From a virus, in the IMG/VR virus record IMGVR_UViG_3300045988_180769, positions 32,001 to 96,000 of that record: 64,000 bases of DNA. The stretch is one strand, 5' to 3'. The notes under the pieces are model-generated. The model ran no database searches. It saw nothing but the letters and a program-made list of their open reading frames with translations, and was not told the DNA's origin. Position numbers and translations under genes: made by a program. Positions 28,701 to 59,660 of this stretch are shown here, piece after piece. Position 1 is the stretch's first letter. Every line of letters begins with the position of its first letter.

Positions 28701-31002
28701 GATTCGTCACTACATATGTATATGTTCCATTTCCCAACATCACTGATGTAACTCCATTGACATTAGTGATCGCTGTCTCTCCATTGATTGATAATTGTGC
28801 TCCTTGAATGAAATTTCCATTCTCAATATCTCTAACTGTCAATCTAAAAGTATAATATGCCTTTCCTAACTTTACAATCTGTGATATTGACTCTCCATCT
28901 ACAACCAGTCTATTGGAATAAGTCATGTATCCTGTTTTGAAAATAGAATAATCATAAATACCATCAGGTAAACTAATAATTGCAACACCATTTTCATCTG
29001 CAATATATGTTGCATTATTTATCGAAACAGTAGCTCCAGGAATAACTGTTTCAGTCTCTTCATCTAATATCGTGAATTTGATTTCATAAGGAACTGCAGC
29101 CATTTCAATCACAACGCAGTTTGGTTCTTCACCAACTACTGTAATGTTTTGAGTTTTCCTTTGATATCCCTCTTTTAATACAGTTACTTCGTAATTACCA
29201 ACCTCAAGTCCTATTTCAGCCTGTCCTTCTTCGTTGGTTACTTCGTTTTGATTGACTACAGAAATATTCGCTTGTGGAACATAAACACTTCTTGTTCTAT
29301 CTATCACTGCAAAACTTACTGTAAGTGTTTCTAAAAACATTCTTTCGAATATTTCTAATGGTTGATTTTCAACTGTCAGAACACTTTCAATTGTTTTAAA
29401 TCCAGCCTTAGTTATTGTATAACTATATGTTCCAGGTTCGAGCTCAACTTTTGCTATTCCATCAGGATCTGTTGTTATTGTATAAATACCAACATTTATC
29501 GAAGCACCTTCCATTGGCGCGTTTCCTTCGTAAACAGTAAATACGACTTCATAAGGAGTCGCTGTAAAATCATTTACTGTTACAAAAACAGGACCATTTA
29601 ATACAACAAATTCACCAGTCTTTTGAGTCCAATTTGCTTTTGTTAAGCTAAAACTATATTCACCATTTTCGAGAAGAATATTCGCTGTTCCATTAGCATC
29701 TGTGATAATTACTTTATTACCTATTGTAATGTAAGCACCAGGAACTGGAATATTTTTTAAATTTGTTACAGTAAAAGATACAAGATATTTTTGAGATACA
29801 ATAGTTGTTTGTGTTCCTTTATAAATGTCATTATCACTCGCAGGATAAAAGATGTTCGAAAGATCAGAACCAGAATCATATAAAATATTCCCTTCCAGAT
29901 CTCTCATTCTAAATCCTTTGATTCTTGGTAACATATTCAAAGGTACTTCTTCATCATAATAGGGAAAGAAATATTCATCAGGAACATACTTAACACCATC
30001 TGATGATTTCACTACTTGTAAAAGATCGTCCCACTGAACAGTTTTTCCTGGCTCCCAAAATCTAAAATCCAAATATTTGGTCATTGCAATTTGAATATTC
30101 TTTCTTACATCTGCAATGTCTGTATCAGGATAAAGTTCAACTCTAAAGTCTACACCTTCTTCTCCACCAACATACATCCATTTTGCATTCTCAAGAACAA
30201 CACCAATTGTTTCTCCTGACAAATTTAATTCTGTTAAACCAAAATAAGGAGTTGCTTGTTCGAGGAGTGTTTCAAGTTCGTCATCAGTAAAAAACGATCC
30301 ATTCTGTGTAACAAGATAGATATGTGTTTTACCATCCTCACCAAGTCCAACATTCATCACTCTCAAAATTCTACTATCTAAATCCTGGAATATTTGTGTC
30401 CAAGATTCCATTGTTTCTTCTGAAAGCTTATTGTTGTAATTTATAATTCTGTTTCTAAATGTCTCATCATCCTCATAATCACGACCTCCAATAGCTGCAT
30501 ATTCATTTGTACACTCAATATGTGTCAATGGTCTTGGAGATACTTGAGTTATACTGTTTGCTTCTACATTAGTTGCTGAACCAGTAATAACACTCTTTAC
30601 ACTTACATATCCATATCCTGAATTATCAACTGTATAAGCCTGATCAACAATAAATCGTATACCATTCTTTGAAATGAAATATGTTCCAACTGCATAAATT
30701 GTTCCAGGTTGTGCAAAAACTCGTACATAAGTAGATGATCCTAAAGCCTGTTTTCTTGGACTTACACCAAACAATGCTGCAGACTTATCCAGATAATCTC
30801 CAGTCGCTGATTTTGGAAATATCTGCGCTTCTACGATACTAATGTCTTTAAGTGCTTTTTGTGCAACCTTTGCTGTACCAAAAGCAACTCCATTCAAGAT
30901 CGATCCATCAGCAATGTTGGACACCTTATCTGTCTTATTTAAAAACATTTCGATCCACAAGTTTTTTAAATTTGCGATCGTACTACTTGTTTTTGTAATC
31001 AT
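19702..31002 (-). CDS. giant baseplate protein (3766 aa): Baseplate-J-like N-terminal domain fused to dozens of beta-sandwich repeats and a distinct C-terminal domain
   Basis: The N-terminal ~400 aa fit the gpJ/gp6 pattern: DYLDKSAALFGVSPRKQALGSSTYVRVFAQPGTIY...GSATNVEANSITQV...AIGGRDYEDDETFRNRI. From about 29790 downward come serial ~85-aa CarboxypepD_reg-like modules (...GA.I.I......TD.NG.A...L..G.Y.Y...K.G...). Seven ~166-aa super-repeats follow. Uninterrupted ORF with an ATG start. Confidence 0.8.
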   Translation of the reverse strand: MITKTSSTIANLKNLWIEMFLNKTDKVSNIADGSILNGVAFGTAKVAQKALKDISIVEAQIFPKSATGDYLDKSAALFGVSPRKQALGSSTYVRVFAQPGTIYAVGTYFISKNGIRFIVDQAYTVDNSGYGYVSVKSVITGSATNVEANSITQVSPRPLTHIECTNEYAAIGGRDYEDDETFRNRIINYNNKLSEETMESWTQIFQDLDSRILRVMNVGLGEDGKTHIYLVTQNGSFFTDDELETLLEQATPYFGLTELNLSGETIGVVLENAKWMYVGGEEGVDFRVELYPDTDIADVRKNIQIAMTKYLDFRFWEPGKTVQWDDLLQVVKSSDGVKYVPDEYFFPYYDEEVPLNMLPRIKGFRMRDLEGNILYDSGSDLSNIFYPASDNDIYKGTQTTIVSQKYLVSFTVTNLKNIPVPGAYITIGNKVIITDANGTANILLENGEYSFSLTKANWTQKTGEFVVLNGPVFVTVNDFTATPYEVVFTVYEGNAPMEGASINVGIYTITTDPDGIAKVELEPGTYSYTITKAGFKTIESVLTVENQPLEIFERMFLETLTVSFAVIDRTRSVYVPQANISVVNQNEVTNEEGQAEIGLEVGNYEVTVLKEGYQRKTQNITVVGEEPNCVVIEMAAVPYEIKFTILDEETETVIPGATVSINNATYIADENGVAIISLPDGIYDYSIFKTGYMTYSNRLVVDGESISQIVKLGKAYYTFRLTVRDIENGNFIQGAQLSINGETAITNVNGVTSVMLGNGTYTYVVTNPNYKRYTGTVTIKDQDVVETIYIQIRDTEVTFIATDQLTGEVIEGVNIDLVNKGTMEKVTSGVTNALGQVTLSAEADDYTWTATHKWYISVTQDVTLEKLKDIEVPFTMKRKDINTEVDLTEFIPGVSGDEDTVKVSGVKSVEALGNDGFYYVLRMPESILVPNSAISFDMRDLVQTFRRPEDGGLNVEYDWLLLGGARLDINIIPIPSPFATLEGTQINVAENVELKRDATPRECYIDLTVTTEVSQSTGNIKLTQQKSSRFMPVKSGLKVTAKNTVDGTTKQYTTNENGAIFPDITPGVSYEFTITEAGFYTNNGLFIMSWNFEGNFPVDMQITASKQLELRVKQANTLRPLEGAEIVVTGMSLDQTVTSGSDGSAKVYITPLTMGYTCTFPDHNVLTGTFTPPLTNDYIDLVLTYEQITFNLTVSNTVPYNHVAESCPVTVSSTWGGTPSQQYTFTGTTNANGVLNTLGNGTFNIPPGNYKITVGDANGNYEVATKDIYLPTEKTTSIIATRRSFSITATVKEILPLISSTANPVKAGLVLACYYNENGTSSGPNVTTNASGQFTKTIYAGLPERFEVQPVVFYEGNGAVVKLNNTDAKTPILTYTCSKRIPVYVTSDQYGELTGATVVFKGMSVDQTQTTDSDGIVYMYLSPISMNYTVSAQYYDTTTLTFTPTGSETRMDITLKAQVFPVTFNVSTGGIIAPEGIIVRITNEDKSTLVYEGTTDVNGLTIIPDVFTGNYSYAVLAGEITTGTFFHPQTSTGTVIDVEVKYELINAGIQVSEIFGSNGSAYLADQTLTMTSKAGEITITLDENGYANMTLIKTLPYTFTTDAYPNFYSNPTQTYTWTEDGYIWPMNLNVSAQITFNVKDQYAGTNLQGATVTWNSQQVTTNASGNAVLYRSALTKDYSVDDSGYDTKQGTITPTTTSPVNVLLYRIKQTVTISVAEVIPGVTGSFAYNGMTINYTSAAGNGTLTLSATGTASFDAYLGIPISFAVVLHPEFYSNPTQSHTYTAAGQSFAMNLTCSAKITIKAITDIYVTDPNLGGATVTYFNQTGTAASDGTVSLYRSGLTQGLSVSNGSYFNPYSGTITAAQTSPLTVTLTRIAVTALLTVNETISGTNYPLANSKITISRPGITGSSHDLNANGQLVSGTYYLGISYTFVPTNYSNYYSNASQAHTFTASGQSWVMNLTCSANVVVNVKSNIPASTNIQGASVSYFHQTKTTDASGNATFLRSGLNQSLSSSATYFDTLSTTLTAAQSSPFNITMIRATTPIVLKVVETIPGVTGTFAYAGKTIKWTAGSSTGNITTDSSGNVSFSGILGTAITFSVTENTDFYSNPSQSFTYTSEGQSQTMSLTCAKQIVVNTKVNVPTGNVAANMSVTYFNQTKTTDASGNASFYRSGLDKSITVGDSSYINGYSGTILSTSASPFNIVLTRKTATVTLQVVERYPGATTDYSYPNRPITVSPLTSGSSVTLNANSTVSFTAYLGTPTTFTVQEAPSWYSNPTQTYTFTAANQTFKMTLNITARITFNIKSNIPSGTNLSGANVTFFGQAGVTDSSGNVSFYRGVPGREYQVSATYHTGTSGQIGSGTTGTVNVVLSRLSANVTLSVQEATLVHSGYCLEIATAASGSTSPGLGGFTYSFPTAANKEYVAYFYAKVPTGYSISFHTNAIGDSAVSRWLTGTAGTGDWGLYMYYIRTYSTGTFSSTFFFVLQGTTRPVAWQLGLATVYDITGNNFTSSTAGTIIQRACTYDKMVSRHSDYSFQNGNNNITIYNNSGGSAVTLTRKATPSNGSYNPVSVYPSKKMTFTPAASTSPLTLDTAGNVTFACYLGTPITFGVVDYRNYYSNPDNAITFTSSGQVALISLKCNNSIRVNVVSNVPASTVLPGANLVYFGQKETTTSEGYVFFYRSGLDKPLTGTATYFNPYSGTVTAAQTSPYTITMLRTTVTVTLTVNEVIGSNSYRLASTVMSRTSTGGNADLTLDGNGQKSNTVYAGLVYTYTPKNYASYYSNATQTHTWTTEGEGWTMNLTASTRITFNVKSKNYGGNLSGVTLTMLGQTGTTDSSGNVSLLRSGCAVTRTYSYSKTNYVSGSAQLAAGTASPVNIILSEATSSITITIKDVYQGVIKGNTNGCPVTLTNTTLSTITFSGSTNSSGQVSFGPMITGTYIVRWGGGTSYWVAGSANINMPTAASTHNASRLTRSIGSFFRIKYGSALGWWAINTYMKPVYTTAGTATTVTLSNSEAVSYLGTYTWIAGIATTVVAKVANYFVTGATTTETPYVITPTYNFSNVPTAESNAFTSVAIKTIVVTVQNSLTNAAVSGATIKMYGLNGSNAISGAFSGGYAPQTVTTNASGQATVYVSGLTNRYQVSASKYDSLETTNANTTNFTIKLVPSEATITFNVVREDNTSLVAANCAVKLSTNKSTINYSGTTNSAGTVSIVIRPGAYYLQLGGLVTGWGTGASSGDYPVTTTYPAVWNFNIDQSVQVRAMYIGNNGWVQKVYDYAAGNQYSYGRYTGIGPSYNPYYSQPSNSSAYVVPLDYNNLPSNKIPSVGCANFYSSRGFFNLGQFDMAAVNTSNIGQYSEQLSLSMYDQNIMKSKVIFHEISSQTSGAWGTFEKCILYMFTASPQESLPKIAIATFTLMYNINHQQCLSRLIINTTFGTSSNPNNYFSNFGCLNSYSCIGGVVLGHNTVESGEIIISPSFEPKSFVATLHNYVPSNTLINMSGSVNTTTSYYKFMKAYEDNTYFVTLALGLDQASALTAWKLSCIKYDRTLQVNNSTNYSYYDNQVSVIQANLGANCWINSNCTWMFFVPKGSPTLFGYAKGLYSYYYNGNVIINANGFIVDSQTYMNTEHTAFLRSQMASYYVQEIIFSKSGTKMILFISGTAGCFGALFQNTSYAEGNNPKSFSCWQYSDVEGVWKSLGGSGDKINMEGTYNQSVAGGLSEVYRPSVYEVLSWNGDSYISFAYPSYSNPAISGKLPTTFYGYKLIW
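22400..26500 (-). repeat. seven tandem ~500-nt (~166-aa) coding super-repeats within the 3766-aa gene
   Basis: The landmark motif (F/Y/W)YSN(P/A)(T/S/D)Q..T(F/W/Y)T..G recurs at about 26180, 25685, 25180, 24685, 24185, 23150 and 22655. Each unit also carries ...TTDASGNA.F.RSGL.... Spacing is about 500 nt, except for a ~530-nt insertion at 23330-23860. Confidence 0.75.
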
Positions 31003-47591: not shown

Positions 47592-48287
47592 TTATTTAAC
47601 AAATTTTACATTGTTCTTTTCATACATATAACGAGCTAAATCTTCGCCCATTACATCTGCTTCAGGATTTGTCAAAAAAGCGAGTGCATCATCCTGTAGA
47701 GATTTTCTGATAATATCGTCTGCACCATCCAAAGCCTTTTCAATCAACTTTGATGCCATCGGACGTTGAGTAACAATGTTTACTTCATACTTATCGTTTT
47801 CGTCTTTTTCAAAATTCATTGCCTTTTCGATTGCACGAAAATTGTTTAAGCCTTCAGATTTGAAAGAAGGAGTAGAACTTCCGATCTTATCCAACTTTTG
47901 ATCCATTCTTTCAACAGATTTCTGTAAACTTTCGATAATAGGAGCAAAAACAGATAAAGACTTCTGAATTGTCGCATTTACAGATTTCATCATTTCTTCC
48001 TGATCTTCATCGTCATCAGACTTTTCGATTCCTTCTGCATCACGATCTTCCGCAGTGTCTTTTTCATCTCTTTTTACTTTCTTCTCTTTCTTTACAGCTT
48101 CTCTTTCGAGTTTATCAATGTCTTCTTCTTGTTTTGTTTCAGACTCATGATCACCTCGCGCAGCACGATCCTCCGATTTCTCAAGATTGATATCACCAGA
48201 GTCAATTCCTTTCATAATATAATCGTCACTGAATCCGATACTTTTAAGGAACTTTACAGTTTCATTGTTTTCATAATTTACTTTCAT
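47592..48287 (-). CDS. scaffolding protein
   Basis: 231-aa, highly acidic and helical (EDRAARGDHESETKQEEDIDKLEREAVKKEKK...). Lies between the protease and capsid genes. Confidence 0.6.
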   Translation of the reverse strand: MKVNYENNETVKFLKSIGFSDDYIMKGIDSGDINLEKSEDRAARGDHESETKQEEDIDKLEREAVKKEKKVKRDEKDTAEDRDAEGIEKSDDDEDQEEMMKSVNATIQKSLSVFAPIIESLQKSVERMDQKLDKIGSSTPSFKSEGLNNFRAIEKAMNFEKDENDKYEVNIVTQRPMASKLIEKALDGADDIIRKSLQDDALAFLTNPEADVMGEDLARYMYEKNNVKFVK

Positions 48288-48341: not shown

Positions 48342-49124
48342 TTATTTCTTCGAATTCTGAACAAAATCGTTCAAAACATTTAAAGATATGCGACCCTCTA
48401 TGCATTTCTTATATAATGTCTTAAAGATTTCATCATTTATATTGTTAGTAGGTCTTACTCGAATGGAGAAGTCTTTGTCTATCGTAATGATATGACCATT
48501 CTTTTCCATTTCAAGTAAAACTTTTGTTGTCTTGAAATCTTTATCTGTTTCAAAATCATAATCAATATAATCCTTAGATTGTTTTCCTTTGACAATATCT
48601 GCAAACGCGTTTGCATTGACTGGCGTCATTGTCATAGCAACATTAGTAATGAGAGCTTTTGTGATTCTTTTAGGATTTTTCCTATCTCGTTCGAGAGCTT
48701 TTCCTTCAATACTGAAACCTGGTTTTCTGTCTGTACCTGATTCTTTCATTTCGAGAGCTTTATCGTAGAACGCTCTCGCTTCAGGAGATTTCTTCCAAAG
48801 TTGACATTTTACATAGAACTTATTATTATCAACTTTTGCAGACAATGGCGCACCAATCCAAAAACGAGATTTATTAATTGGTGATCGTGATGGTAAGTGA
48901 TCAAGATTGATCAAACCATGTTTGAGAAAACGATCAATGATGAAACCATTTGGCTCCATTGATTCACCTTCATCGTCTTCTTCATTATCAGAGGCCAATC
49001 CTTCGAAGATCATCTTCTCATATCTCCGATCATCCCCAATAGGAAAGTTCAGAGGATTAAAAGAATGTGACTTCTCAAAATCAGCCTCAGCAAAAAAATT
49101 AAATTTATCTCCTACGTGGAACAT
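48342..49124 (-). CDS. prohead serine protease (HK97/S78-like)
   Basis: IFEGLASDNEEDDEGESMEPNGF...INLDH, KPGFSIEGKALER and ITKALITNVAMTMTPVNANAF follow the S78 block order (His, Ser, C-terminal PxN). Confidence 0.7.
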   Translation of the reverse strand: MFHVGDKFNFFAEADFEKSHSFNPLNFPIGDDRRYEKMIFEGLASDNEEDDEGESMEPNGFIIDRFLKHGLINLDHLPSRSPINKSRFWIGAPLSAKVDNNKFYVKCQLWKKSPEARAFYDKALEMKESGTDRKPGFSIEGKALERDRKNPKRITKALITNVAMTMTPVNANAFADIVKGKQSKDYIDYDFETDKDFKTTKVLLEMEKNGHIITIDKDFSIRVRPTNNINDEIFKTLYKKCIEGRISLNVLNDFVQNSKK

Positions 49125-49134
49125 TTGTCTCTTT

Positions 49135-49983
49135 TCATAATCTCAACGAATTTATGAAAATGTCTATGTACTTATCAATCAACTCATGACACCTAACTCT
49201 ATTCCAGTCTTCTTCTCTTACTTTCTTCTTCATTCCCATAAGAGCACCAAATAAAGCTGCATTGGTATCAGTATCTTCTCCATAATTAATAACTTCACAT
49301 AAGTCTTCAAACAGAGAAGTTGACTTGTTTTCCTGAGCTAAATAATTATCAATCACGAGATTATATGTGTTGATCACATCACCCTTATTATCATAATCGT
49401 TTATCTCTACATTTTCAAGAGGCAAATCTCGCAACAATTTTTGAAATATGCAACAAAGTTTAGAAGCAAAATTGAAACATTTTATATTATTATGTGTATA
49501 CCCACAAAATAAATCCATTCTTTCTCTTATGACTTCTGGTGATTCCTCAAGAAAATAAATAGCCAAAGGTAATGAGTAAAACAATGCTCCATTTCCCATT
49601 CTGTCTGTTCTTGGGCAACCTCTCATTCTTATTGATTCAGAAGTTTGGTTTCCTATATCAAATAACTCTACACCTGCATTAAATTTTCCTTTATAATACC
49701 ATAAATTGAGGTTATTTTCATATCTCTTATGAATATCCATCAATCTTTTAGATGGGTATGAAAAGGCATCTATTAAACATAATAAAACAGATGTATCGTC
49801 TGACCACGTTCCTTCTATCTGTCTATGAACTCCTCCTGATGAAAAAGAAGAGCACTTAAAAGTGCCCTCTTTTTTAAATTCGAATGGAACTCCGAGTGCA
49901 TCGCCTAAAATGTAAGCTCGAATACTATTTCTTATTTTTTCTGTCTTCGTCATTCTCGAATTCTTTAAGATTCTTAACTGCAT
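49135..49983 (-). CDS. ADP-ribosylglycohydrolase (ARH/DraG family)
   Basis: IRAYILGDALGVPFEFK, GTWSDDTSVLLCLIDA and YGEDTDTNAALFGALMG are the family's metal-binding blocks. The start could instead be the ATG at 49953. Confidence 0.85.
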   Translation of the reverse strand: MQLRILKNSRMTKTEKIRNSIRAYILGDALGVPFEFKKEGTFKCSSFSSGGVHRQIEGTWSDDTSVLLCLIDAFSYPSKRLMDIHKRYENNLNLWYYKGKFNAGVELFDIGNQTSESIRMRGCPRTDRMGNGALFYSLPLAIYFLEESPEVIRERMDLFCGYTHNNIKCFNFASKLCCIFQKLLRDLPLENVEINDYDNKGDVINTYNLVIDNYLAQENKSTSLFEDLCEVINYGEDTDTNAALFGALMGMKKKVREEDWNRVRCHELIDKYIDIFINSLRL

Positions 49984-50175: not shown

Positions 50176-52356
50176 TTACACTAATTCGACAACAATAGAA
50201 TTCGTTCCTTTCGCTACAACTTTATACTTACTGTTTCTTTGTACAACATATTCTAATTCTGCAATTTGATTATTAACATTAGATACTTTATCTCCTTTTT
50301 TGGCTAATAAAGTTATTTGAAGATCATTTCCAAATTGTTTTAAGTGCCTCAACGAAAACGAACTAAAACTCTTGTCTTCTATAATAGAACCAACTTCTGC
50401 ACTCAACCATTCATTTAAAATATTCAAATTAGATGGTTTTATTTCGACTCTTCTATTTAAAATTAAATTTTCTTCACAAGGATTTTTATTTATAAGTGAT
50501 TCAATCTTTTCCACTCTATCTGCAATAGAATCATTTTTAACTTGTCCATAATTATAATTTCTTATTGCACTATATTCTTGCCCCATATAAATTTTTATCG
50601 CTTTCAATTCTTGTTTTGTTGCGTTCAACTTTTCACCTTGTTTATCGTAATACTTTTGTGCTTCATACAAAAGTTCCTTAGAATCTAAATCAAAAGGTGC
50701 AACAAAATGTTTATATTCAACACCATTAAAATTGTGATATAAAACACCATTCGCAATTGGAAGATAACCTGATTCAACAAGCAACTTGTTTACTTCGACT
50801 CTTCCTTTTTCATGCATATGTCCATATTTTTCAAGAATCTTGTTAAAATTACGTTCTTCTATTGCTTCCTTAATTATTTCTATTGTAGACTCAAAATCTT
50901 TTTTCTCATTACCTTCCTTGAGTTTAAAATCTTCTACAGATTTAAACGCATCTTCTAATCGTTTAGATTGATCTTCATCGAGAGTGTTTGTTAATTTGTT
51001 TCTCTTTTCTGTATATTTATTAATTTCCTTTTTATTTTTAAAATGTAATCCATTAGAAGGGTTGTTATTTTCACCATCTTTTCCAGATTTTGATTCTTCA
51101 GTTCCTATCATAGCTATTGGTACATCATAAAGATTGGGACTATTTACTGATATATTGTTCTTGAGATTGGTAACTTTATATACTGTACTTCCATTATCAT
51201 TAGTCACTTTCTCTATGTGATACTTTTTACCATTACGCTCAACTTCAGCGATTCCTGAATTAAGAGCATCTTTAATTTTAGACCATTGGACAATACCTGA
51301 TCCAGGATTCGTCCAATTAACCTTTGTTATCGTTTTTGGCTTTTCTTCTGGTTTATCCTCTTCCTTTTTAGCATCTGGAATTTGATCTAACATCTCATTT
51401 CCTTTTTCTTTTGCTTCATCTAAACTATTTTGATAATTTGTCATAAGAACTTTCTTTCCATCACTATCAAATGCTTCAATTTTGTAGTGGGTTTTACCAA
51501 AAGAATTCTCTTCAGGTTCAATCGTTACGAAAGCACCTTTCTTTCCATTAAGTGTAACTGGCTTATTACTTACTTTTTCTTCCTTTTTAGGTTCTTCTTG
51601 TTTCTTTTCCTCTGGTTTTGGCTCTTTATCTTGTGTCTTCTCAAATTCTTCTTTAACCCTTTTCTTAAAATCAGCTAACGATTCATAAGGTTTCGATTCC
51701 ATATAAAAAGAACCTTTCTTTGTTTTATATTTATCGTCACCTTTCATGTTTAGAACAATTGTTTGTCCATTAGACTTAACATAGGTTTGAGTGATCTTTT
51801 TGAAACCATTCATCTCGTTAAGTTTGTTATCAATGTTCTCAGCAATCTCATTCTTTAACTTTTCAAGTTTAGAATCAAGTGTCTTTTCATCAAGTGGTTT
51901 TTGTTCTTCTTTCTTTTTCTTTGATTCAGCAATCTTATCTTTAATCTTGTTAAGCACCTCTTCATCCAGATCTAATTCACCTTTTTCTTGGGCATCAAGA
52001 ATTCTTTGAAGTGCTGAAGAAATACCAACTTCTTTATTCTCCTTATCACCTTTATTTTCTTCTGTTTTACCTTGTCTATTTTCAAGTTCTTTCTTTGCAG
52101 CTTCTCTTACTTCTTTTGGCGCATCCTTATCTTTTAATGCTGCATTTAACTGTTCATCACTCGCTTTAGAAGCATGTTCAGAATGATCAACCTTTTTATC
52201 TTTTGATGAGATTTCCTCTTCTTCAGAAGAATTCTTTCCTTTACCTTTTGGTTTCCATCCTGTTGCTGTTTTTATATAAACTTTACCTCCCCAAGTTTTC
52301 TCTGTTCCAACTGGAGATGCTTTCTTTGCCTTTTCAATCAAATCAATTAAATCCAT
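50176..52356 (-). CDS. Alt-like ADP-ribosyltransferase (726 aa; C-terminal R-S-E ART domain)
   Basis: The C-terminal ~150 aa read YMGQEYSAIRNYNYG, LILNRRVE (Arg), KSFSSFSL (STS-like) and QIAELEYVVQRNSKY (ExE). This matches the C3/VIP2/T4 Alt-type toxin fold signature. The N-terminal part is K/E-rich with low-complexity linkers. Confidence 0.8.
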   Translation of the reverse strand: MDLIDLIEKAKKASPVGTEKTWGGKVYIKTATGWKPKGKGKNSSEEEEISSKDKKVDHSEHASKASDEQLNAALKDKDAPKEVREAAKKELENRQGKTEENKGDKENKEVGISSALQRILDAQEKGELDLDEEVLNKIKDKIAESKKKKEEQKPLDEKTLDSKLEKLKNEIAENIDNKLNEMNGFKKITQTYVKSNGQTIVLNMKGDDKYKTKKGSFYMESKPYESLADFKKRVKEEFEKTQDKEPKPEEKKQEEPKKEEKVSNKPVTLNGKKGAFVTIEPEENSFGKTHYKIEAFDSDGKKVLMTNYQNSLDEAKEKGNEMLDQIPDAKKEEDKPEEKPKTITKVNWTNPGSGIVQWSKIKDALNSGIAEVERNGKKYHIEKVTNDNGSTVYKVTNLKNNISVNSPNLYDVPIAMIGTEESKSGKDGENNNPSNGLHFKNKKEINKYTEKRNKLTNTLDEDQSKRLEDAFKSVEDFKLKEGNEKKDFESTIEIIKEAIEERNFNKILEKYGHMHEKGRVEVNKLLVESGYLPIANGVLYHNFNGVEYKHFVAPFDLDSKELLYEAQKYYDKQGEKLNATKQELKAIKIYMGQEYSAIRNYNYGQVKNDSIADRVEKIESLINKNPCEENLILNRRVEIKPSNLNILNEWLSAEVGSIIEDKSFSSFSLRHLKQFGNDLQITLLAKKGDKVSNVNNQIAELEYVVQRNSKYKVVAKGTNSIVVELV

Positions 52357-52407: not shown

Positions 52408-54159
52408 TTAATGCATTTGTAAACGATACTTGGTTTGCATCAAATCTCCAAGAAAATCTTCAATCCAAGACATTTCACCAAGATAATCAATATTATCTTT
52501 TATAACCTCATGAAAATCTTGTGTTCGCTTAATAATCAAATCTACAAGTTCTATAGGATCATTCACATTAATTTCTTCACCTACAATTTCACCTTCTTTA
52601 AATCGACCAAACTTGCTTTGACCTGCTTCCATCACTCGATCTTCGTAATCAGAAAGTGTATCTTCGAGATCATCGAGATATTCATGTTTAGAATTATCTA
52701 ACTCACCCCAATGAACATTCTTTGTACGAGTTTTTGCTCCTTCAATAAAATTAGCAAAATCAGCAAATAAACCAGACATCATGTCTTCAGCTTTTTCGAT
52801 TGTCTCAACAGAATCAATATCAAGTTTACCAGACTTTTTCATTTCATTAATCAATGATTTAAACATATCAGCCTGATCAAGATCGTTGAAGTTAATTGTC
52901 AATGAAAAACCATTTGTAGACTTTTTAATACCATCGTCATCTGGTTCTTTTTCTTTATCATCAAGATGTTCTTTACAGATTGTATTTGCATCGTCACAAT
53001 CCATTGTCTTTTCAACATCATCGTGATCGCCCCAACTTTCAGGAAGTTCATCTGTAAGTCCAAGTTCTTTCGCTCTTTTCTTAATCCATGCCTTTACTTC
53101 ACTATCAGGCATTGAAGAAGCTCCTACAAGTCGTATAGCATCTTTTAGATCTTGACTGTTGCGAATTGGATATTTTCCATTTGACATCGCTTCGCCTTTC
53201 TTGGCGAGATCTTTTCTTTCTTTATGAGAAAAATATGTCTTATTGTTAGCTTTTTCAATCTCCTCAGGATGTTTGTCACAATATGCTTTGAACACATTCT
53301 GTGAAATTACACCATCATTGAAAGCTTTTTGTATTTTCATCAAAGGACTGGGTTGAATTTCAAGTCCAAGAATTCTTTTAAGATTATCCTTCATATCAAA
53401 AATGAAATCATAATCGTCCAATTCTGTTCCAGGATAAATCCATTCAGCTCCAATTTCCTCTTCGCTATCAACTAAAACTGTTGTAGGAGAATCGTCATCT
53501 ACATGACCCATAAAATAATGAATGATGCAATCTTTTGATTCAGCGACAGCAACTTCCATTAATGTATCTTCTGGTACTTCAATTCCTGTCTCTTCAAAAA
53601 GTTCTCTACATGCTGCTTCACGATAATCTTCACCAGCATCTACATGACCTCCAGGAATGCACCATTCTTGTGTATTTCCTCCCATAACACCAGCTCTCTG
53701 TAAGATCAATAATTTATCTCCTCTAAAAAGCAATACGTCTGCATAACGAATCTTTCCAGTCTTTGCTTTAATGATATCGTTATATACAGATTTTGAAATC
53801 CTTTTGTTTTTGTAGGATTGTTTTGCATCATGAAGAATTTTCAAGTCAACAATTGCATCGAAAATCTCTTCATCGTTTTCAAGTCTATTCATCGACTTTT
53901 CAATCTGTGATTTTTCTTTTTGCAACTTTGCTACTTTCTTTGCATGTTCTGTCAAAAAGGAGTTATGTCGATCTCGAACTTCTTTTCTCTCTTCAGTTCC
54001 TAAAAGCGATATACTCTTTAAGATTTCACTTTGTTCAAGAAATTCCTGAGACATTTCTTCAACTTTATTGTCAATGTCTACAGACTTCTTCAATAATACT
54101 TTGTATTCACCAATCTTCTCTTGTGCTGATTGGAGATTTAATATTTTTCTGATATTCAT
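52408..54159 (-). CDS. multidomain protein: coiled coil, Nudix hydrolase domain, C-terminal Dps/ferritin-like domain
   Basis: Nudix box GGHVDAGEDYREAACRELFEETGIEV (about 53585-53660). The C-terminus KNVHWGELDNSKHEYLDDLEDTLSDYEDRVMEAGQ...EMSWIEDFLGDLMQTKYRLQM follows the Dps helix pattern (HW...H...D..(A)E...W(m)L). Confidence 0.75.
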   Translation of the reverse strand: MNIRKILNLQSAQEKIGEYKVLLKKSVDIDNKVEEMSQEFLEQSEILKSISLLGTEERKEVRDRHNSFLTEHAKKVAKLQKEKSQIEKSMNRLENDEEIFDAIVDLKILHDAKQSYKNKRISKSVYNDIIKAKTGKIRYADVLLFRGDKLLILQRAGVMGGNTQEWCIPGGHVDAGEDYREAACRELFEETGIEVPEDTLMEVAVAESKDCIIHYFMGHVDDDSPTTVLVDSEEEIGAEWIYPGTELDDYDFIFDMKDNLKRILGLEIQPSPLMKIQKAFNDGVISQNVFKAYCDKHPEEIEKANNKTYFSHKERKDLAKKGEAMSNGKYPIRNSQDLKDAIRLVGASSMPDSEVKAWIKKRAKELGLTDELPESWGDHDDVEKTMDCDDANTICKEHLDDKEKEPDDDGIKKSTNGFSLTINFNDLDQADMFKSLINEMKKSGKLDIDSVETIEKAEDMMSGLFADFANFIEGAKTRTKNVHWGELDNSKHEYLDDLEDTLSDYEDRVMEAGQSKFGRFKEGEIVGEEINVNDPIELVDLIIKRTQDFHEVIKDNIDYLGEMSWIEDFLGDLMQTKYRLQMH

Positions 54160-54201: not shown

Positions 54202-54618
54202 TTATATCTGATCACTTTTTATGCAAATATTATTCACATAAAGCGTTTTACCCTTTTTTAATTGAATGCTATAAAAGAAACGATTAACAGTTTCCATCTT
54301 CTCAATTCTATCAACAATTGCCACATCTCCATTCCTGTGTAACATTGAGTCTCCAATTGTAAGATCTTTAACTATCGTTCCATCAAGTAATTCTTGATCT
54401 CCTGAAATACGATCTATCACTCCTTCTTCATTGAAAGTGTGATAATACACATTATAAACTGCATCTCGTGGTTTCGCCAATCGTTGATTTATCAACTTGA
54501 CTTTAGAAAATGACTTTCTGTCAGTTAGGATCAAATCATTTGGTTTGATATCTTTTAAGAACTTATCACCTTCGATTGTCCTTATTTCTACAAAGTTCGA
54601 ATTAAATCCACCTTTCAT
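54202..54618 (-). CDS. free-standing degenerate Hint (mini-intein-like) domain protein, 138 aa
   Basis: Block A-like FVEIRTIEGDKFLKDIKPNDLILT. Block B-like RISGDQELL (TxxH replaced by SGDQ). TIVKDLTIGDSML. Block F/G-like FFYSIQLKKGKTLYVNNICIKS (no HN). No Cys1. Confidence 0.55.
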   Translation of the reverse strand: MKGGFNSNFVEIRTIEGDKFLKDIKPNDLILTDRKSFSKVKLINQRLAKPRDAVYNVYYHTFNEEGVIDRISGDQELLDGTIVKDLTIGDSMLHRNGDVAIVDRIEKMETVNRFFYSIQLKKGKTLYVNNICIKSDQI

Positions 54619-54620
54619 GT

Positions 54621-55178
54621 TTATTCATGTATTATTGTTCCTATTCCATATTCATCAATCCTCAGACCATATTCTATAGGAGCTATGATATTATAAAGTT
54701 CTCCTTTGTACTCTTCTTCTTTGATTTCGAGCTTCTCTACTTTCTTATAACAATAATGACTTTTTTCTCTATGCGACATGTGTTCAGCCATATCTTCAAT
54801 ACTACCATCTATCGCATCTTGATTTAATTCATAGCTCCATCCTTCTATCGTTGTTAAGATTTCGTCATCTTCAAATTCATCTATAGACTTTTCGTTAATG
54901 ACAGGATACTTTGCTCCTGGAAGATATTTACATGCGAATAACTTTTGATCTTTACAATATGTAATGGTGGCATTTGTTTTTGACAACACTCCATTGTATT
55001 GCCCTGATACAATCTTTACAGGATAAAAACAAAAGCTCATTGAAGGAAGATGATACATTTGAATATAGTCTCCTTCTTTAACATCTTTTATTTTAATTTG
55101 TTCCCATCTAACAGGTTCGAGTTCATCATCTCCCTTTACGAGAACATATACTATCGTATCTCCTATATATCCTATCAT
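54621..55178 (-). CDS. free-standing degenerate Hint-like domain protein, 185 aa
   Basis: N-terminal IVYVLVKGDDELEPVRWEQIKIKDVKEGDYI. Block B-like YCKDQKLF, sharing DQ.L with the 138-aa paralog. C-terminal ELYNIIAPIEYGLRIDEYGIGTIIHE ends the protein where inteins have HN. ATGA overlap with the MuF gene. Confidence 0.5.
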   Translation of the reverse strand: MIGYIGDTIVYVLVKGDDELEPVRWEQIKIKDVKEGDYIQMYHLPSMSFCFYPVKIVSGQYNGVLSKTNATITYCKDQKLFACKYLPGAKYPVINEKSIDEFEDDEILTTIEGWSYELNQDAIDGSIEDMAEHMSHREKSHYCYKKVEKLEIKEEEYKGELYNIIAPIEYGLRIDEYGIGTIIHE

Positions 55179-57148
55179 ACCTCAAAAGTTTTATCTCCAA
55201 CATATATTTTAACTTTACTTCTTCTCTCGATCTTTCTTTCATAGTTTTTAGGAGGAACAAACATTTTCTCTTCATCGCTCCAAACATATCCTTTTGGAGT
55301 ATATCGAAGTTGACAGCGACAATTACCTGAAATGCAAATTTTACCATTTCTCCTAATTATCAATGTATGATTCTTCTCAAGTTCAACATCGTAGATGTAT
55401 CCATTATAATCAATTTCTTTTGGTTGTAATGCTTCACTTATGGCTGTTGTATTAAAACATTCATCAATATAAATTTGATCAAATTTGGATGTATATGTTT
55501 TTTGATATTTTTTGTCATACACAACAACTTTACCTGTATTTCGATAAGAAGGTCTTTTACCTATTTTCAAAATAAGTTCACCGATATCGTCAGCCAATCT
55601 TGGACTTGAAGTTGAAAATACTCTATTATCTTTACATTTATATCCATCCCAATCTCTTCCTTTGCGAATTGAACCATCTCCTAATCTAAATGCTTCTAAA
55701 AAGATTTCAATACATTCTTTATTAAGTTCTTTGATGTTCTGTGGTATAAACTTATCGTGTGAATGACCAAATTGTTTCATATAATCCCAAAGCTCATCTT
55801 GATCACCTCTATAAAGTCTAATTTCTATATAATTGGAGCATTTATTTGCATTTGGAAATAATTGAACACAACAATCAAACATTTTTTGCAAATATTTCTC
55901 CTTACTTTGAGCGATATGAATTCTTCTGCTACCATATTCCACTGTTGATCCTTCAGATAAAAAATATCCCATAAATTCACAAAACAGTTTTGAATCATAT
56001 TCTCTCTTATCAAAAACAAATGATTTTACTGATTCACCTTTCCAATTTGGAATACTTCTCAAAAACCTCGTACTTTTAAAGATATCTTTTTCTGTTCCTA
56101 AAAACCATTTGAAATTACTTTTAGCTATCACATGATTATGGTTTGGAGTTGTCATTAAAGAAAATGATTTATGTTCTCTTAATAACATTTTTCCTTCATA
56201 TTTTTCTTCGATCCAACCTATAGCTTTACACCATTCACCATTTCCATCTTCAAGATTAATGGAGAGGAAATTTTCATCTTTATTTAAATCTTTAAAGAAT
56301 TTAAAACCTTCATTGGTTAGTACTTCTGTTTTATCGTCATAACAAAATGGATGTACAGGTCCGAGCGTTGGTTTCCAATTAGCAACTTTTACACCAATAT
56401 TGTCTCCATTTGCTATTAAATCAATCAATTTGAAAAGCCTTGGTTTTGTTCCAATTCCTCCAGTTGTATATAATCGAATACAATGTTTACACGCTCCAGG
56501 AAAGACCTCTTTGTACACTATTGCTTCAGAACCATGTTCTTCCATAATAGTTTGTGCCATTCCAATTTGATAAATATCCTGAAGTTCTGTCTCAACTATT
56601 CTTCCCCAATCTCTATTCCAATCGTTTAATGAATGACCAATATTACTCACAATATTTTGAACACTCTTTTTCTTTAAAGTTCCTTCAAGAATTTCTTTTT
56701 TAATCGTAGAGTGTTCTAATTGTCGCTGTGTCTCCATTAGAAGGTTTATTTCTTCTTGTGAAACAGCGTTAGTAATAATATCCTTCATTCTTTGTCCCAT
56801 ACTCTTTATATAAGAGTAAGTTCGAGTTGCTGCAGCATTATAAACTGCTTTCTCATGTGTAGATAATGTTTTAAACTGTTTTTTATCTATGAACAAAGAA
56901 AAGTCATGATAATCTAAAGATCTTAATTGAGATGGTGATAAAACTGAAGATAATCTTCCAAAAAGAAAAGATTGATAATATGGAGGTATCTTGTGAAGTT
57001 CGTTCTTCCAATTGTATCTATTCTTTATCAATAAATCTTTATCCTCAGGAGTAAGAAGACCAACTCCAAGGACATCAGCGACAATCTTTGCTAATCGAAA
57101 GTCAACTATTGAAAACAACTGTTGTATATCTTCAGGACTAAATATCAT
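55175..57148 (-). CDS. MuF/SPP1 gp7-like minor head (morphogenesis) protein interrupted by an intein
   Basis: The extein parts give PGACKHCIRLY...GPVHPF|CRCQLRY, i.e. the C..C...HP.CRC motif of MuF-family proteins. Located right after the portal gene. Confidence 0.75.
   Translation of the reverse strand: MIFSPEDIQQLFSIVDFRLAKIVADVLGVGLLTPEDKDLLIKNRYNWKNELHKIPPYYQSFLFGRLSSVLSPSQLRSLDYHDFSLFIDKKQFKTLSTHEKAVYNAAATRTYSYIKSMGQRMKDIITNAVSQEEINLLMETQRQLEHSTIKKEILEGTLKKKSVQNIVSNIGHSLNDWNRDWGRIVETELQDIYQIGMAQTIMEEHGSEAIVYKEVFPGACKHCIRLYTTGGIGTKPRLFKLIDLIANGDNIGVKVANWKPTLGPVHPFCYDDKTEVLTNEGFKFFKDLNKDENFLSINLEDGNGEWCKAIGWIEEKYEGKMLLREHKSFSLMTTPNHNHVIAKSNFKWFLGTEKDIFKSTRFLRSIPNWKGESVKSFVFDKREYDSKLFCEFMGYFLSEGSTVEYGSRRIHIAQSKEKYLQKMFDCCVQLFPNANKCSNYIEIRLYRGDQDELWDYMKQFGHSHDKFIPQNIKELNKECIEIFLEAFRLGDGSIRKGRDWDGYKCKDNRVFSTSSPRLADDIGELILKIGKRPSYRNTGKVVVYDKKYQKTYTSKFDQIYIDECFNTTAISEALQPKEIDYNGYIYDVELEKNHTLIIRRNGKICISGNCRCQLRYTPKGYVWSDEEKMFVPPKNYERKIERRSKVKIYVGDKTFEV
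55322..56344 (-). mobile_element. intein (341 aa) with LAGLIDADG endonuclease domain inside the MuF-like gene
   Basis: Begins CYDDKTEVLTNEGFKFFKDL (Cys1, block A). Block B MTTPNHNHVIA. LAGLIDADG motifs FMGYFLSEGS and FLEAFRLGDGSI. Ends YDVELEKNHTLIIRRNGKICISGN followed by +1 Cys. Confidence 0.85.
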
Positions 57149-57345
57149 TCTGTTATCTCAATTATTTTATTAACCAAATCCTTCATCATGTTATTTGTTT
57201 GAGTAGCAAACATAACTTGTGCCAATCCTTCATATCCACATTGCACTTTTGGATATCGAATAGGATCTTTTGTATGATAAACAATGTTCGAAGTCTTCGA
57301 CATTTGTTTTACATCTATTCCTTTTATGGTTTTAAATGGTGGCAT
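57145..57345 (-). CDS. hypothetical small protein (66 aa)
   Basis: ATG-initiated ORF between the portal and MuF genes. ATGA overlap with the MuF start. Confidence 0.45.
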   Translation of the reverse strand: MPPFKTIKGIDVKQMSKTSNIVYHTKDPIRYPKVQCGYEGLAQVMFATQTNNMMKDLVNKIIEITE

Positions 57346-57348
57346 TTG

Positions 57349-59082
57349 TTATTTCCATAAGTTCTTTTGATAATACTCAATCGCTGGTTGAAGAATAGGA
57401 TTATCCATTGATTTATACTTATCAAATGGATTTTCTTCTTCCATTCCAAAATCACCCTCACCTTCTTCTCCTGGAACGCCCTCTTCTTGACTTTGTCCTG
57501 GAACAGAAGCTCCAAACATTTGTTGCTGTTGTTCAGTTTGTTTTGCAGTTTGGTAAACTTGATTGATAATAATATCTTTTTCTGGATCAAATGGCCTTCC
57601 TGAATATTTTTGAAAAATATCCTGCATTGCCACCATACCTTTATCAAGTTTATCCATATCTAATTTTACTTGTGCTTCTTCATCTTCAACCTCTATTCCA
57701 GTAAAAGCGAATTCCCAGTCTTCATCAAGTTCACTAACAATGTATTTTGTAATAATGTTCTCAAGGAAAATCAATATTGGTTTTAGACCTTTCTCTCTAC
57801 TATGTTGCAATCGAGCTTTTTGACCATCCTGTCCAAATATTTGTGCCTGATCTTTAAACTGAAAACCAAGTTCTGTGGGGTCCATTCGATAAACAGCGCA
57901 TCCTATAATAATCAAGAATTTGAGCCATTCGTTGAACTCCATGTCTCGATTGTTCTTTTGAAGATCAATCCATTCCAGATCAATACCATTTATAACAGGT
58001 ACTCTATGAGAGTTTTGAACTCCTCTCATTGTTTGAGTCCATGCCTGTCTAAATTCGTTTAATGTAGAATTAGAGATGTTCTGGTTCTTTACATTCACAA
58101 AGCCCTTTGGTTGAGAACCTTGTGAAAAGAAGTTACCATTATATTGCATACCCCACAATATCCAAGTAATGATCTCAACAAGTGTTTCAAGTTCACTCGT
58201 TCCATAACCATTCTTTCGAATATTAGAAGTTTTGTTTCTTATTCCAAATCCAAGTTCCCATGGATAATACAAGATTGATTCTTGTGTCACTGGATTTTTT
58301 AAGATCATATCTTCCCATACCATACAATATCTTGGTAGGTAACCTTTGAATCGATACTCTTCATAATTATCCCTTTGTCTTGGATCGACTGTATCTAAGA
58401 ACCTAATCAAAGATGCATCTACAGCTCTAAACTTCTCTAACTCCCAATTTCTATTTCGAAGAAGTTCGAATGCTAATTGATCAAGTGTCAAGCTATCAAA
58501 AGTAATCTTTCTAATGAAATCTTGAAATCCATCGATATTGTCCCATTTCTCATTCCAACCACCATTCTCAAGAAATTCGACAATCTTTTCGACCTTTCTC
58601 TTATCTTCGTCAGAAAGATCGTTTGCATTCTTTTCTTGAAAAAGACCTTTTTTCTTTCTTATAGTGTATCCTTCTTTTTGTTCATCTTCTGAGAAATGCA
58701 AAAAGTTTTGAACCTGCTCTATTCGAGTATTAACAATAGCACGAATGATATAAATATCACCCATCTTACGAAGAGACTCAAAAGAAAGAACACTCTTTTG
58801 ACTCTTAAATCCTTTACCATTTCCAGTAAAGTCATTTGGATCAAAAAAGATTGATTGTATATGCTTTGGTGCCTTATTTACTTCACCAAGATAAACATTC
58901 GCTTTGAATATCTCTGTAGGATCATTTGAATTCAATGATGCCTGTAATTTACTTTGAAATGCCATTGGTGCTGCTTTTTGCAGTCTATCGATTTCTTCTA
59001 AAGAAAGATCGGCCAAACTTGTAATAAAATCTGGCCTATCTATTCTTTGAGCATTGTTTCTTTTTCTTCTTTTACTTCCCAT
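57349..59082 (-). CDS. portal protein
   Basis: About 577 aa. The central region GYGTSELETLVEIITWILWGMQYNGNFFSQGSQPKGFVNV...EFRQAWTQTMRGVQNSHRVPVINGIDLEWIDLQ...MEFNEWLKFLIIIGCAVYRMDPTELGF follows the portal-family pattern. An acidic C-terminus follows. The track start at 59121 is TTG, so the ATG at 59082 (MGSKRRKRNN) is preferred. Confidence 0.8.
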   Translation of the reverse strand: MGSKRRKRNNAQRIDRPDFITSLADLSLEEIDRLQKAAPMAFQSKLQASLNSNDPTEIFKANVYLGEVNKAPKHIQSIFFDPNDFTGNGKGFKSQKSVLSFESLRKMGDIYIIRAIVNTRIEQVQNFLHFSEDEQKEGYTIRKKKGLFQEKNANDLSDEDKRKVEKIVEFLENGGWNEKWDNIDGFQDFIRKITFDSLTLDQLAFELLRNRNWELEKFRAVDASLIRFLDTVDPRQRDNYEEYRFKGYLPRYCMVWEDMILKNPVTQESILYYPWELGFGIRNKTSNIRKNGYGTSELETLVEIITWILWGMQYNGNFFSQGSQPKGFVNVKNQNISNSTLNEFRQAWTQTMRGVQNSHRVPVINGIDLEWIDLQKNNRDMEFNEWLKFLIIIGCAVYRMDPTELGFQFKDQAQIFGQDGQKARLQHSREKGLKPILIFLENIITKYIVSELDEDWEFAFTGIEVEDEEAQVKLDMDKLDKGMVAMQDIFQKYSGRPFDPEKDIIINQVYQTAKQTEQQQQMFGASVPGQSQEEGVPGEEGEGDFGMEEENPFDKYKSMDNPILQPAIEYYQKNLWK

Positions 59083-59093
59083 CGCTCTTTTCT

Positions 59094-59660
59094 TTATGCA
59101 GTCGTACCAGCTTGTGTACAATTGACAACCATTTCTTTGTTTGAAACATCCTGAACATATGTCACTGAACCAATCTTTTCAGTTGGATCTGCATTCGCTG
59201 CCATAGTGATGGAATCATTGTTCACTGTTACATTAACAAGATTGGTTGTTGTATAATCAACATTTTCAGGGTCGCCTTCTGGTTCGCCATTAATCGTCTT
59301 CTGTCGAGTAGAAACGATCGTTACTTGTTTGGTCTCTCCTGTATTAACAAAACTTAATGTTGTTGGTGTCACTGTAAAGGTGTATTCAAACTCCTCTTCA
59401 ATATCTACCAATATTTGAGCTTTATCGTTTAATCCCTCAGGATAGGAAAGTAATTTAAAAGGACCAATAAGAGCCCATTCTTTAAATCGACCAATATTAT
59501 AAGTCATTCCTGGTTCTATGACTATTCCAAGTGATTTGAAATAATCCACATCTCCAACTGTGTTTTCTGTAACAAACACATTCAACTGACTGTCAATACC
59601 ATCAGTAATCACAGTCAGTTGTTTGGAGTTATCTATATTAGTGAATAAAAGTCTTAACAT
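59094..59660 (-). CDS. hypothetical protein with a C-terminal Ig-like segment; paralog of 59670-60227
   Basis: Shares LTVITDG/TLVTDG, VFVTEN/IFITES and YPEGLND/TPEGLNN with the neighbour. The C-terminus TFTVTPTTLSFVNTGETKQVTIVS is Ig-like. Confidence 0.5.
   Translation of the reverse strand: MLRLLFTNIDNSKQLTVITDGIDSQLNVFVTENTVGDVDYFKSLGIVIEPGMTYNIGRFKEWALIGPFKLLSYPEGLNDKAQILVDIEEEFEYTFTVTPTTLSFVNTGETKQVTIVSTRQKTINGEPEGDPENVDYTTTNLVNVTVNNDSITMAANADPTEKIGSVTYVQDVSNKEMVVNCTQAGTTA

Follow-up and report, generated by a model that had tools for sequence, protein, structure and literature searches.

Two small genes downstream of a MuF-like gene

We describe two small genes from a viral DNA stretch of 64,000 nt (the window), which corresponds to positions 32,001 to 96,000 of the IMG/VR virus record IMGVR_UViG_3300045988_180769. 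They are two open reading frames (ORFs), called here ORF-A and ORF-B, which follow the gene of a MuF-like minor head protein that contains an intein. Both are free-standing genes; ORF-B has the size and the predicted Hint fold of a mini-intein, and ORF-A is probably Hint-derived. All coordinates below refer to the window, and all genes of this region are found in the minus strand. The main features are the following:

55175..57148, minus strand: gene of the MuF-like minor head protein, 657 amino acids (aa) with its intein and about 316 aa without it
55322..56344, minus strand: resident LAGLIDADG intein, aa 269–609 of the MuF-like protein, recognised by Pfam and delimited by comparison with the intein-less orthologues
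55175..55178, minus strand: ATGA in which the stop codon of the MuF-like gene overlaps the start codon of ORF-A, read in the sequence (the plus strand reads tcat)
54621..55178, minus strand: ORF-A, 185 aa, free-standing and probably Hint-derived
54619..54620, minus strand: spacer of 2 nt between the stop codon of ORF-A (TAA) and the start codon of ORF-B (ATG), read in the sequence
54202..54618, minus strand: ORF-B, 138 aa, with the size of a mini-intein, free-standing, predicted Hint fold

The stop codon of ORF-A occupies positions 54621–54623 and the start codon of ORF-B positions 54616–54618. An initial annotation of this region had given the same positions and strand, the ATGA overlap and the 2-nt gap, all of which agree with our direct reading of the sequence. 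The motifs quoted in it are also present: CKDQKLF in ORF-A (C75–Q78, 54945..54956) and SGDQELL in ORF-B (S72–Q75, 54394..54405), as well as the C-terminal sequences IIHE-stop of ORF-A and CIKSDQI-stop of ORF-B.

The Hint fold of ORF-B

We begin with ORF-B, for which a first search gave nine homologues; further ones were found later in phage contigs. A profile of ten sequences, compared with the Protein Data Bank (PDB), matches the gp41-1 mini-intein 6qaz with an E-value of 5e-5, residues 11–138 of ORF-B being placed on residues 10–125 of the intein. The AlphaFold model calculated with the ten-sequence alignment is all-beta, with a mean predicted local distance difference test score (pLDDT) of 87.2 and a predicted template modelling score (pTM) of 0.79. 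A Foldseek search of the PDB with this model gives 46 matches with E ≤ 0.001, all of them Hint domains from inteins, bacterial intein-like (BIL) domains and Hedgehog proteins, with template modelling (TM) scores of 0.53–0.81. They include BIL2 6y75 (E 5.9e-8), gp41-1 (TM 0.76–0.81), NrdJ-1, the BIL domain of C. thermocellum, the DnaB, RecA and Prp8 inteins and Hedgehog 1at0. In the BFVD database the model has 77 matches with E ≤ 0.001. The best one is A0A8S5P792 from 'Herelleviridae sp. cttEB8', a protein of 144 aa with 46% identity and a TM score of 0.91, which is named 'Hint module'.

We also compared families with hhalign, using an intein profile which was built from mini-intein sequences, with or without the intein of the window trimmed to its splicing domain. 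The ORF-B family matches this profile with a probability of 86–92% in local and 64–87% in global alignments (P 4.5e-7 to 8.8e-6), over 113–129 collinear columns. A distant homologue, found in the gut phage MT835500.1, gives an E-value of 0.0019 with Vint, below the curated cutoff. On the evidence of profile comparison and predicted structure, ORF-B has a Hint fold and is a member of the Hint superfamily. The initial annotation had proposed a mini-intein-like Hint fold for this ORF, to be checked by profile searches and Foldseek; these searches agree with it, and the 138 aa of ORF-B do fall in the size range of mini-inteins, about 125–140 aa.

The origin of ORF-A

ORF-A has more distant relationships. 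Two close homologues were available at first; a HMMER search over 1.84 billion representative sequences added seven distant ones and a profile search added more. The family now has about 25 clusters, all of them free-standing proteins of 185–203 aa. A curated alignment of the family (A5) was compared with the intein profile by hhalign, which gives probabilities of 72.8–78.8% (local) and 77.9–81.4% (global), with P between 1.3e-6 and 3.2e-5. The alignment has 125–145 collinear columns, with blocks A, B and F/G in the right order, and the ends of the protein fall at the ends of the intein. Between the N- and C-terminal lobes there is an insertion of about 45 residues, in the place where inteins carry their endonuclease.

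Several controls were applied to this match. The score of ORF-A is 36.6, as compared with 11.0 ± 2.2 (maximum 18.1) when the columns are shuffled and 14.0 ± 2.9 (maximum 24.6) when blocks of eight columns are shuffled. Ten unrelated families from the same loci give scores of 9.5–19.5 with at most 27 aligned columns, versus 30.7 for ORF-A and 42.0 for ORF-B. Among 177,635 PDB sequences the top profile match of ORF-A is the KlbA intein 2jmz (E 0.011), in the expected register, with CxDQ aligned on THDH. A hidden Markov model (HMM) of five intein sequences was uninformative when applied to the ORFs of the window, as the true intein itself reached only 4.5 bits; single-sequence hhalign was also too weak.

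Other results speak against a Hint origin of ORF-A. The AlphaFold model, obtained with an alignment of three sequences, has a pLDDT of 30.6 and gives no confident structure; with this low-confidence model Foldseek returned only a sequence homologue of ORF-A itself. The PDB match to an intein is weak, with E 0.011 for an alignment called A3 and 0.08 for A5. No Hint family was found for ORF-A in Pfam, NCBIfam or PHROGs; in the case of Pfam and NCBIfam this holds for ten members of the family. Searches of the PDB with single sequences of three diverse members found no intein, and the hhalign probability falls to 39% with an automatically sampled alignment. Finally, the ORF-A and ORF-B families show no detectable similarity with each other (hhalign probability 1–3.5%). 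These results would fit an alternative in which only ORF-B is intein-derived, ORF-A having some other beta-rich fold and resembling inteins by a chance pattern of beta-strands. We consider it rather unlikely: a chance pattern should hardly be collinear with inteins from end to end with all blocks in order, score far above the shuffled alignments and the ten real families, and have an intein as its best PDB profile match. ORF-A is thus probably Hint-derived, as judged from sequence comparison. The view of ORF-A as a Hint protein, put forward in the initial annotation, stands as far as the profile match above the controls is concerned, but the fold is unproven.

Two other identities were considered for ORF-A and rejected. 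The T4 Lon inhibitor PinA was suggested by weak matches to Pfam PF10465 (Inhibitor_I24; E 0.03–0.06, 13.7 bits versus a cutoff of 27) and to phrog_2167 (E 0.017), but hhalign against PinA gives a probability of 1.5%. The 'minor tail protein' gp20 of Arthrobacter phage Judy was found by tblastn with ORF-A (E 0.05); its hhalign probability is 0.5% and it has no Pfam domain.

Loss of the splicing residues

The residues found in both proteins at the key positions of inteins are given below:

Intein position 1 (Cys1): F5 in ORF-B, invariant in nine diverse homologues; G3 in ORF-A, also invariant (global alignment)
Block B, TxxH: S72-G-D-Q75 in ORF-B, with SGEQ in most relatives and VDGS in the most distant one; C75-K-D-Q78 in ORF-A, with CEGQ, CEDA, CADS and IYGQ in relatives
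Block F, Asp: Asn or Ser in ORF-B; N163 in ORF-A
Terminal His-Asn: K134-S135 in ORF-B, with FG, TD or PD in relatives; H184-E185 in ORF-A, placed by eye (the global hhalign alignment is one or two residues off)

A class 1 intein lies in frame within a host protein, between an N- and a C-extein; a nucleophile (Cys, Ser or Thr) is found at position 1, block B contains TxxH, and the terminal Asn, which may be preceded by His, is followed by Cys, Ser or Thr at position +1. Neither ORF has any of these features. Each one has its own ATG and stop codon, which is the case in all related loci, and the ends of both proteins coincide with the boundaries of an intein: there are 2–4 residues ahead of position 1 and 0–3 beyond the last position. 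In class 3 inteins the nucleophile is a Cys in block F, which forms a triad (WCT) with a Trp in block B and a Thr in block G (PMC2807308). The block F sequences NRFFY (ORF-B) and LYNI (ORF-A) have no Cys, and there is no Trp in block B. A split intein pair is not found either, since each ORF aligns with an intein over its whole length, blocks A to G, and there are no extein parts. BIL and PT-HINT autoprocessing domains have a nucleophile, which is missing here, and the ORFs are stand-alone; neither of the two window ORFs matches the Pfam families PT-HINT, Hint_2 or Vint. By sequence, then, ORF-A and ORF-B are not at present inteins (class 1, class 3 or split), BIL domains or PT-HINT domains. 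Neither splicing nor autoproteolysis is expected of them, because the nucleophile of position 1, the His of block B, the terminal Asn and the nucleophile at +1 have all gone. In this respect the initial annotation, which described both ORFs as lacking Cys1 and the other splice residues, is supported by the alignments at position 1, in block B and at the terminal Asn.

Some other positions are well conserved. In ORF-A, Cys75 (at the Thr of block B) is nearly invariant. His184 is invariant; the next residue is Glu, Lys, Gly or Val, unless the chain stops at the His itself, as in 63 of 75 relatives (...KTEH-stop). The N-terminus is also conserved (MxGY...). The homologues of ORF-B start with M..GGFN[ST]xF and mostly end with ...NVCIFG-stop.

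The initial annotation had also pointed to a DQxL motif shared by both ORFs, which does not hold as a family feature. The corresponding block of ORF-A is CEDAK in the largest subfamily and CADSK or IYGQN in others, and the most distant homologue of ORF-B has VDGS. The two families have no detectable relationship and the motif is conserved in neither of them; therefore it is no evidence of common descent. The lack of similarity by hhalign also led us to reject a tandem duplication as the origin of the pair.

Conservation in related phages

A scan of viral contigs gave 123 loci with relatives of ORF-B, 80 of which were analysed; five loci from other look-ups bring the number to 85. They were retrieved by their ORF-B homologue, so that ORF-B is present in 85/85 by construction. 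The genomes of the related phages are mostly about 105 kb long. The MuF-like gene is found directly upstream in all 85 loci, and ORF-A lies between it and ORF-B in 75 of them. A homologue of a NUDIX fusion protein is also present in all 85 and is the next gene after ORF-B wherever the gene order has been read. The junctions are tight: the MuF-like gene and ORF-A overlap by 4 nt in 65 of 75 loci and by 1 nt in the other ten, while ORF-A and ORF-B are 1–4 nt apart in 70 loci and overlap by 17 nt in five. The initial annotation had suggested looking for homologues next to MuF genes in related phages, and this synteny is what we found.

Full-length homologues of both ORFs are found down to 23–28% identity, with intact frames and conserved lengths. 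The median pairwise ratio of nonsynonymous to synonymous substitution rates (dN/dS) is 0.09 for ORF-A (953 pairs) and 0.10 for ORF-B (799 pairs). Both are real genes under purifying selection.

The major capsid protein of the window is 33% identical to those of the Bacteroides thetaiotaomicron phages DAC16-23 and SJC03 and of Chryseobacterium phage MA9V-3; with SPO1-like Bacillus phages the identity is about 29%. These identities place the uncultured clade of gut phages of about 105 kb, to which the virus belongs, near the myophages that infect Bacteroidota. We found no relatives of ORF-A or ORF-B in 185,579 bacterial and archaeal genomes (one per species), and a search of the phage collection at the DNA level gave no match. 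In the cultured Bacteroidota phages a MuF-like gene is present and both ORFs are absent, so that the Hint genes are a lineage-specific addition to the head region.

The initial annotation expected that standard pipelines would not annotate these genes. This is only partly true: other members of the families are called 'hypothetical protein', and Pfam, NCBIfam and PHROGs give nothing significant. However, A0A8S5P792 does carry an automatic label, 'Hint module', in UniProt and BFVD. The cttEB8 genome, which encodes this homologue of ORF-B, also encodes a homologue of ORF-A (A0A8S5P5N1). Proteins of this kind are missed by Pfam, NCBIfam and PHROG scans, and are found by profile searches against solved structures and by structure prediction.

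The MuF-like gene and its intein

The name MuF is weakly founded: it comes solely from a PHROG match, a motif and the gene position. The intein-less orthologue, when scanned, has a weak match to phrog_115, minor head protein (E 0.013); the protein contains the motif HPFCRC; and its gene comes after the portal, with an ORF of 66 aa in between. Pfam gives no match that would identify the protein as MuF. Homologues are present in Bacteroides phage DAC19 and Chryseobacterium phage MA9V-3 (phmmer E 4e-28 and 6e-56, respectively).

The resident intein is found within the motif, between HPFC and RC, which the intein-less orthologues read without interruption as HPFCRC. It begins with CYDDKTEV, has TPNH in block B and finishes with ISGN before a Cys. 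Its end, SGN, means that the penultimate residue is Gly. In Pfam it matches LAGLIDADG_3 (E 2.6e-5) and Intein_splicing (E 0.0014). Among the 85 loci, only 9 have a MuF-like gene of sufficient length to include an intein, and one relative (L004:1629-4631) has a portal of 1000 aa which carries an intein with LAGLIDADG. Inteins are sporadic and mobile within this phage clade.

The initial annotation had stressed that the two ORFs are coupled to an intein-containing gene and had suggested an alignment with this intein. The coupling turns out to be incidental, since an intein-length MuF-like gene is found in 9 loci, versus 85 with ORF-B and 75 with ORF-A; synteny and start/stop coupling are independent of the intein. 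Pairwise BLASTP of both ORFs with the resident intein gives only short patches in register (E 0.34 and 0.022). Neither ORF is a close copy, and a recent copying from this intein was rejected as their origin. The resident intein is context only, with no functional tie to ORF-A or ORF-B.

Genes of the head region

The other genes of the region are the following, in the order of transcription; the MuF-like gene, ORF-A and ORF-B come between the 66-aa ORF and the NUDIX fusion:

57349..59121, minus strand: portal, 590 aa (Phage_portal, E 3.7e-16)
57145..57345, minus strand: small ORF of 66 aa between the portal and the MuF-like gene, with no family basis
52408..54159, minus strand: NUDIX fusion, 583 aa (Pfam NUDIX, E 2.8e-17)
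50176..52356, minus strand: protein of 726 aa whose C-terminal ~190 aa are an ADP-ribosyltransferase exoenzyme domain (PF03496, E 2.3e-10)
49135..49983, minus strand: ADP-ribosylglycohydrolase, 282 aa (PF03747, E 1.7e-24)
48342..49124, minus strand: head maturation protease, 260 aa (phrog_1028, E 3.8e-38)
47592..48287, minus strand: possible scaffold ORF, 231 aa, with no family match, placed by synteny with MT835500.1
46048..47559, minus strand: major head (major capsid) protein, 503 aa (phrog_752, E 1.4e-51)

The portal, the head maturation protease and the major head protein confirm that ORF-A and ORF-B are set in a head module. In the NUDIX fusion, probably an enzyme associated with the capsid, the NUDIX domain is preceded by an N-terminal region and followed by a DUF5856-like C-terminus. 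The ADP-ribosyltransferase and the ADP-ribosylglycohydrolase, encoded next to each other after the NUDIX fusion and ahead of the head protease, form a writer/eraser pair, and by analogy with T4 Alt they may be packaged. In two relatives a gene for a Zeta-toxin-like kinase is found directly after the portal (L003:4445-5374 and L004:4638-5567), likely a further packaged effector of the head module. The gut phage MT835500.1 (locus L001), which has neither ORF-A nor an intein in its MuF-like gene, has a 403-aa ORF between the portal and the MuF-like gene (L001:3784-4995) which by eye looks like a transposon protein of the TnpB/IS200-IS605 type. In the structural region of the window there are also two giant ORFs in the minus strand, with 3766 aa (19702..31002) and 1812 aa (14209..19647).

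Comparison with known Hint systems

The Hint fold itself is known, and the nearest relatives of these proteins are phage-type mini-inteins, especially gp41-1 (6qaz, 6riz). They have in common with both ORFs the Hint fold, their size and the order of blocks A, B, F and G. However, mini-inteins are inserted in a host protein and the two ORFs are not. They also differ at position 1, where Phe (ORF-B) or Gly (ORF-A) is found, in the His of block B, which has become Gln, Ala or Ser, and in the Asp of block F, which is replaced.

The BIL and Hedgehog Hint domains (6y75, 6tmm, 2lwy, 1at0) rank high in the list of structures that match ORF-B, with E-values from 5.9e-8 to 2e-5. Like the two ORFs, they are Hint domains with a use other than classical splicing. 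They are domains of larger proteins which retain the N-terminal nucleophile and cleave or ligate (PMC7765530), whereas ORF-A and ORF-B stand alone and have no nucleophile.

In polymorphic toxins HINT domains act as releasing peptidases (PMC3482391). Proteins with a MuF domain form part of the head and frequently have links to effectors that are injected (PMC5512222, PMC3482391), and a survey of 2012 gives papain-like peptidases as the processing peptidase of the MuF system, with HINT not listed (PMC3482391). The likeness with PT-HINT is that of a Hint module which adjoins delivered effectors: here the two Hint ORFs are preceded by the MuF-like gene and followed by the genes for NUDIX and ADP-ribosyltransferase. 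The difference is that PT-HINT is fused inside the toxin polypeptide and is autoproteolytic, while ORF-A and ORF-B are separate genes that have no catalytic residues.

A further stand-alone Hint protein is g075 of Lactobacillus phage P1 (L088:21822-22253, equivalent to KX223815 61821..62252), which is annotated as hypothetical only. It has 143 aa, no Cys1, TGNQ in block B and VVHD-stop at its end. Its Pfam matches to Hint families have E-values of 2.6e-5 to 1.5e-4, below the cutoffs. Its gene is found among early and DNA-metabolism genes, not in a head module. By hhalign it matches canonical inteins with a probability of 95%, versus at most 5.5% for ORF-A or ORF-B; being closer to inteins than to our two families, it is therefore an independent case. 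We found no paper in which inactive Hint proteins are described as free-standing, conserved members of phage head modules, in a literature search whose coverage is incomplete and which gives no proof of their absence.

Possible origin and function

Taken as a whole, we find it rather likely that ORF-A and ORF-B are a pair of coupled and inert Hint-fold genes which come from mini-inteins, or from an intein-like ancestor, and which have a role in the head. The initial annotation had spoken of domesticated Hint folds, a fair description for conserved and selected head-module genes that lack the splice residues. Their history might have been that of a Hint releasing module linked to MuF, or of a mini-intein, which lost its chemistry and was kept for binding. 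Both ORFs are transcribed together with the MuF-like gene and coupled to it in translation, which would supply them in fixed proportion to this minor head protein. The rigid beta-rich Hint scaffold would then be reused as a non-enzymatic module for binding or structure. It could act in the prohead, where it might, for example, dock on the portal or on the MuF-like protein, or assist in the loading of the effectors encoded nearby.

The functional part of this proposal, a binding or structural module in prohead assembly or cargo loading, is tentative and we would give it somewhat less than an even chance. It is suggested by the gene position, the coupling, the published links of MuF proteins with effectors and the HINT releasing modules of polymorphic toxins. 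As regards position, the ORFs have the MuF-like gene on one side and, on the other, a series of enzymes that are likely to be packaged (NUDIX, ADP-ribosyltransferase and ADP-ribosylglycohydrolase). A more specific version, in which one or two mini-inteins have become non-splicing virion or assembly proteins, used as docking adaptors that load or hold injected enzymes such as NUDIX and ADP-ribosyltransferase in the capsid, is doubtful.

Some observations weigh against a head role. The cultured phages DAC19 and MA9V-3 have the MuF-like gene and neither ORF, and ORF-A is missing in 10 of the 85 loci; therefore neither ORF is required by this phage group to assemble its heads. In ORF-B the invariant polar residues are few (N6, T14, K19, D23, E65 and R70), so that there is no clear binding or active site to name. 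Incorporation in the virion and a binding partner are both putative.

In an alternative reading both proteins do have a Hint fold and act outside the capsid, as early or injected effectors or as cytoplasmic factors which bind a target of the host or the phage, one possibility being an anti-defence decoy; their place would then reflect no more than the accumulation of accessory genes in this stretch. The interval from the MuF-like gene to the protease does contain variable accessory genes (the NUDIX fusion, the ADP-ribosyltransferase and the ADP-ribosylglycohydrolase), and in L003 and L004 a Zeta toxin is encoded close to the portal; the ORFs are limited to one lineage, relatives can do without them, and the comparable g075, inactive and free-standing, belongs to an early or DNA-metabolism region. 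However, every locus retains a tight start/stop coupling with the MuF-like gene, which favours expression together with the late structural genes. We saw no likeness to known defence or anti-defence families, in comparisons that did not include the PADLOC library. On balance a site of action outside the capsid appears unlikely.

Much less probable is a residual catalysis of a non-canonical type, in which residues such as Cys75 and His184 of ORF-A would trim a short N-terminal peptide from the protein itself, or would cleave or ligate the MuF-like protein or the cargo in trans. The conservation of this Cys and of the His at or next to the C-terminus would be explained in this way; moreover, class 3 inteins exist that have no nucleophile at position 1 (PMC2807308), and HINT releasing peptidases are present in polymorphic toxins (PMC3482391). 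On the other side, there are no exteins to be spliced and the class 3 triad is absent. ORF-B has no conserved set of Cys, Ser and His, and both its terminal residues (KS, FG, TD, PD) and its block B (SGDQ, SGEQ, VDGS) vary. Hint catalysis is not known to act in trans. Finally, the idea that the ORFs are functionless, decaying remnants left by the imprecise loss of inteins, which might be suggested by the mobility of inteins in the clade (9 of 85 MuF-like genes and the portal of L004) and by the disappearance of the catalytic residues, is effectively refuted by the low dN/dS values, the intact frames and conserved lengths, the own start codon and conserved N-terminus of each ORF, and the place and coupling kept in the 85 loci.

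Implications for intein evolution

Inteins are usually seen as selfish elements, either active or in decay. Hedgehog, BIL and PT-HINT proteins contain Hint domains which are not inteins and still use the cleavage chemistry. Hint units free of this chemistry, present as independent genes at a fixed place of a head module and under strong purifying selection, point to the use of the fold as a non-enzymatic scaffold. The evolution of inteins would gain in this way a possible end point other than loss. The two ORFs are also candidate head-associated proteins in an abundant and uncultured group of gut phages. If the proposed role is true, they would show clearly that a selfish element of protein splicing can be made into a structural part of a virus particle.

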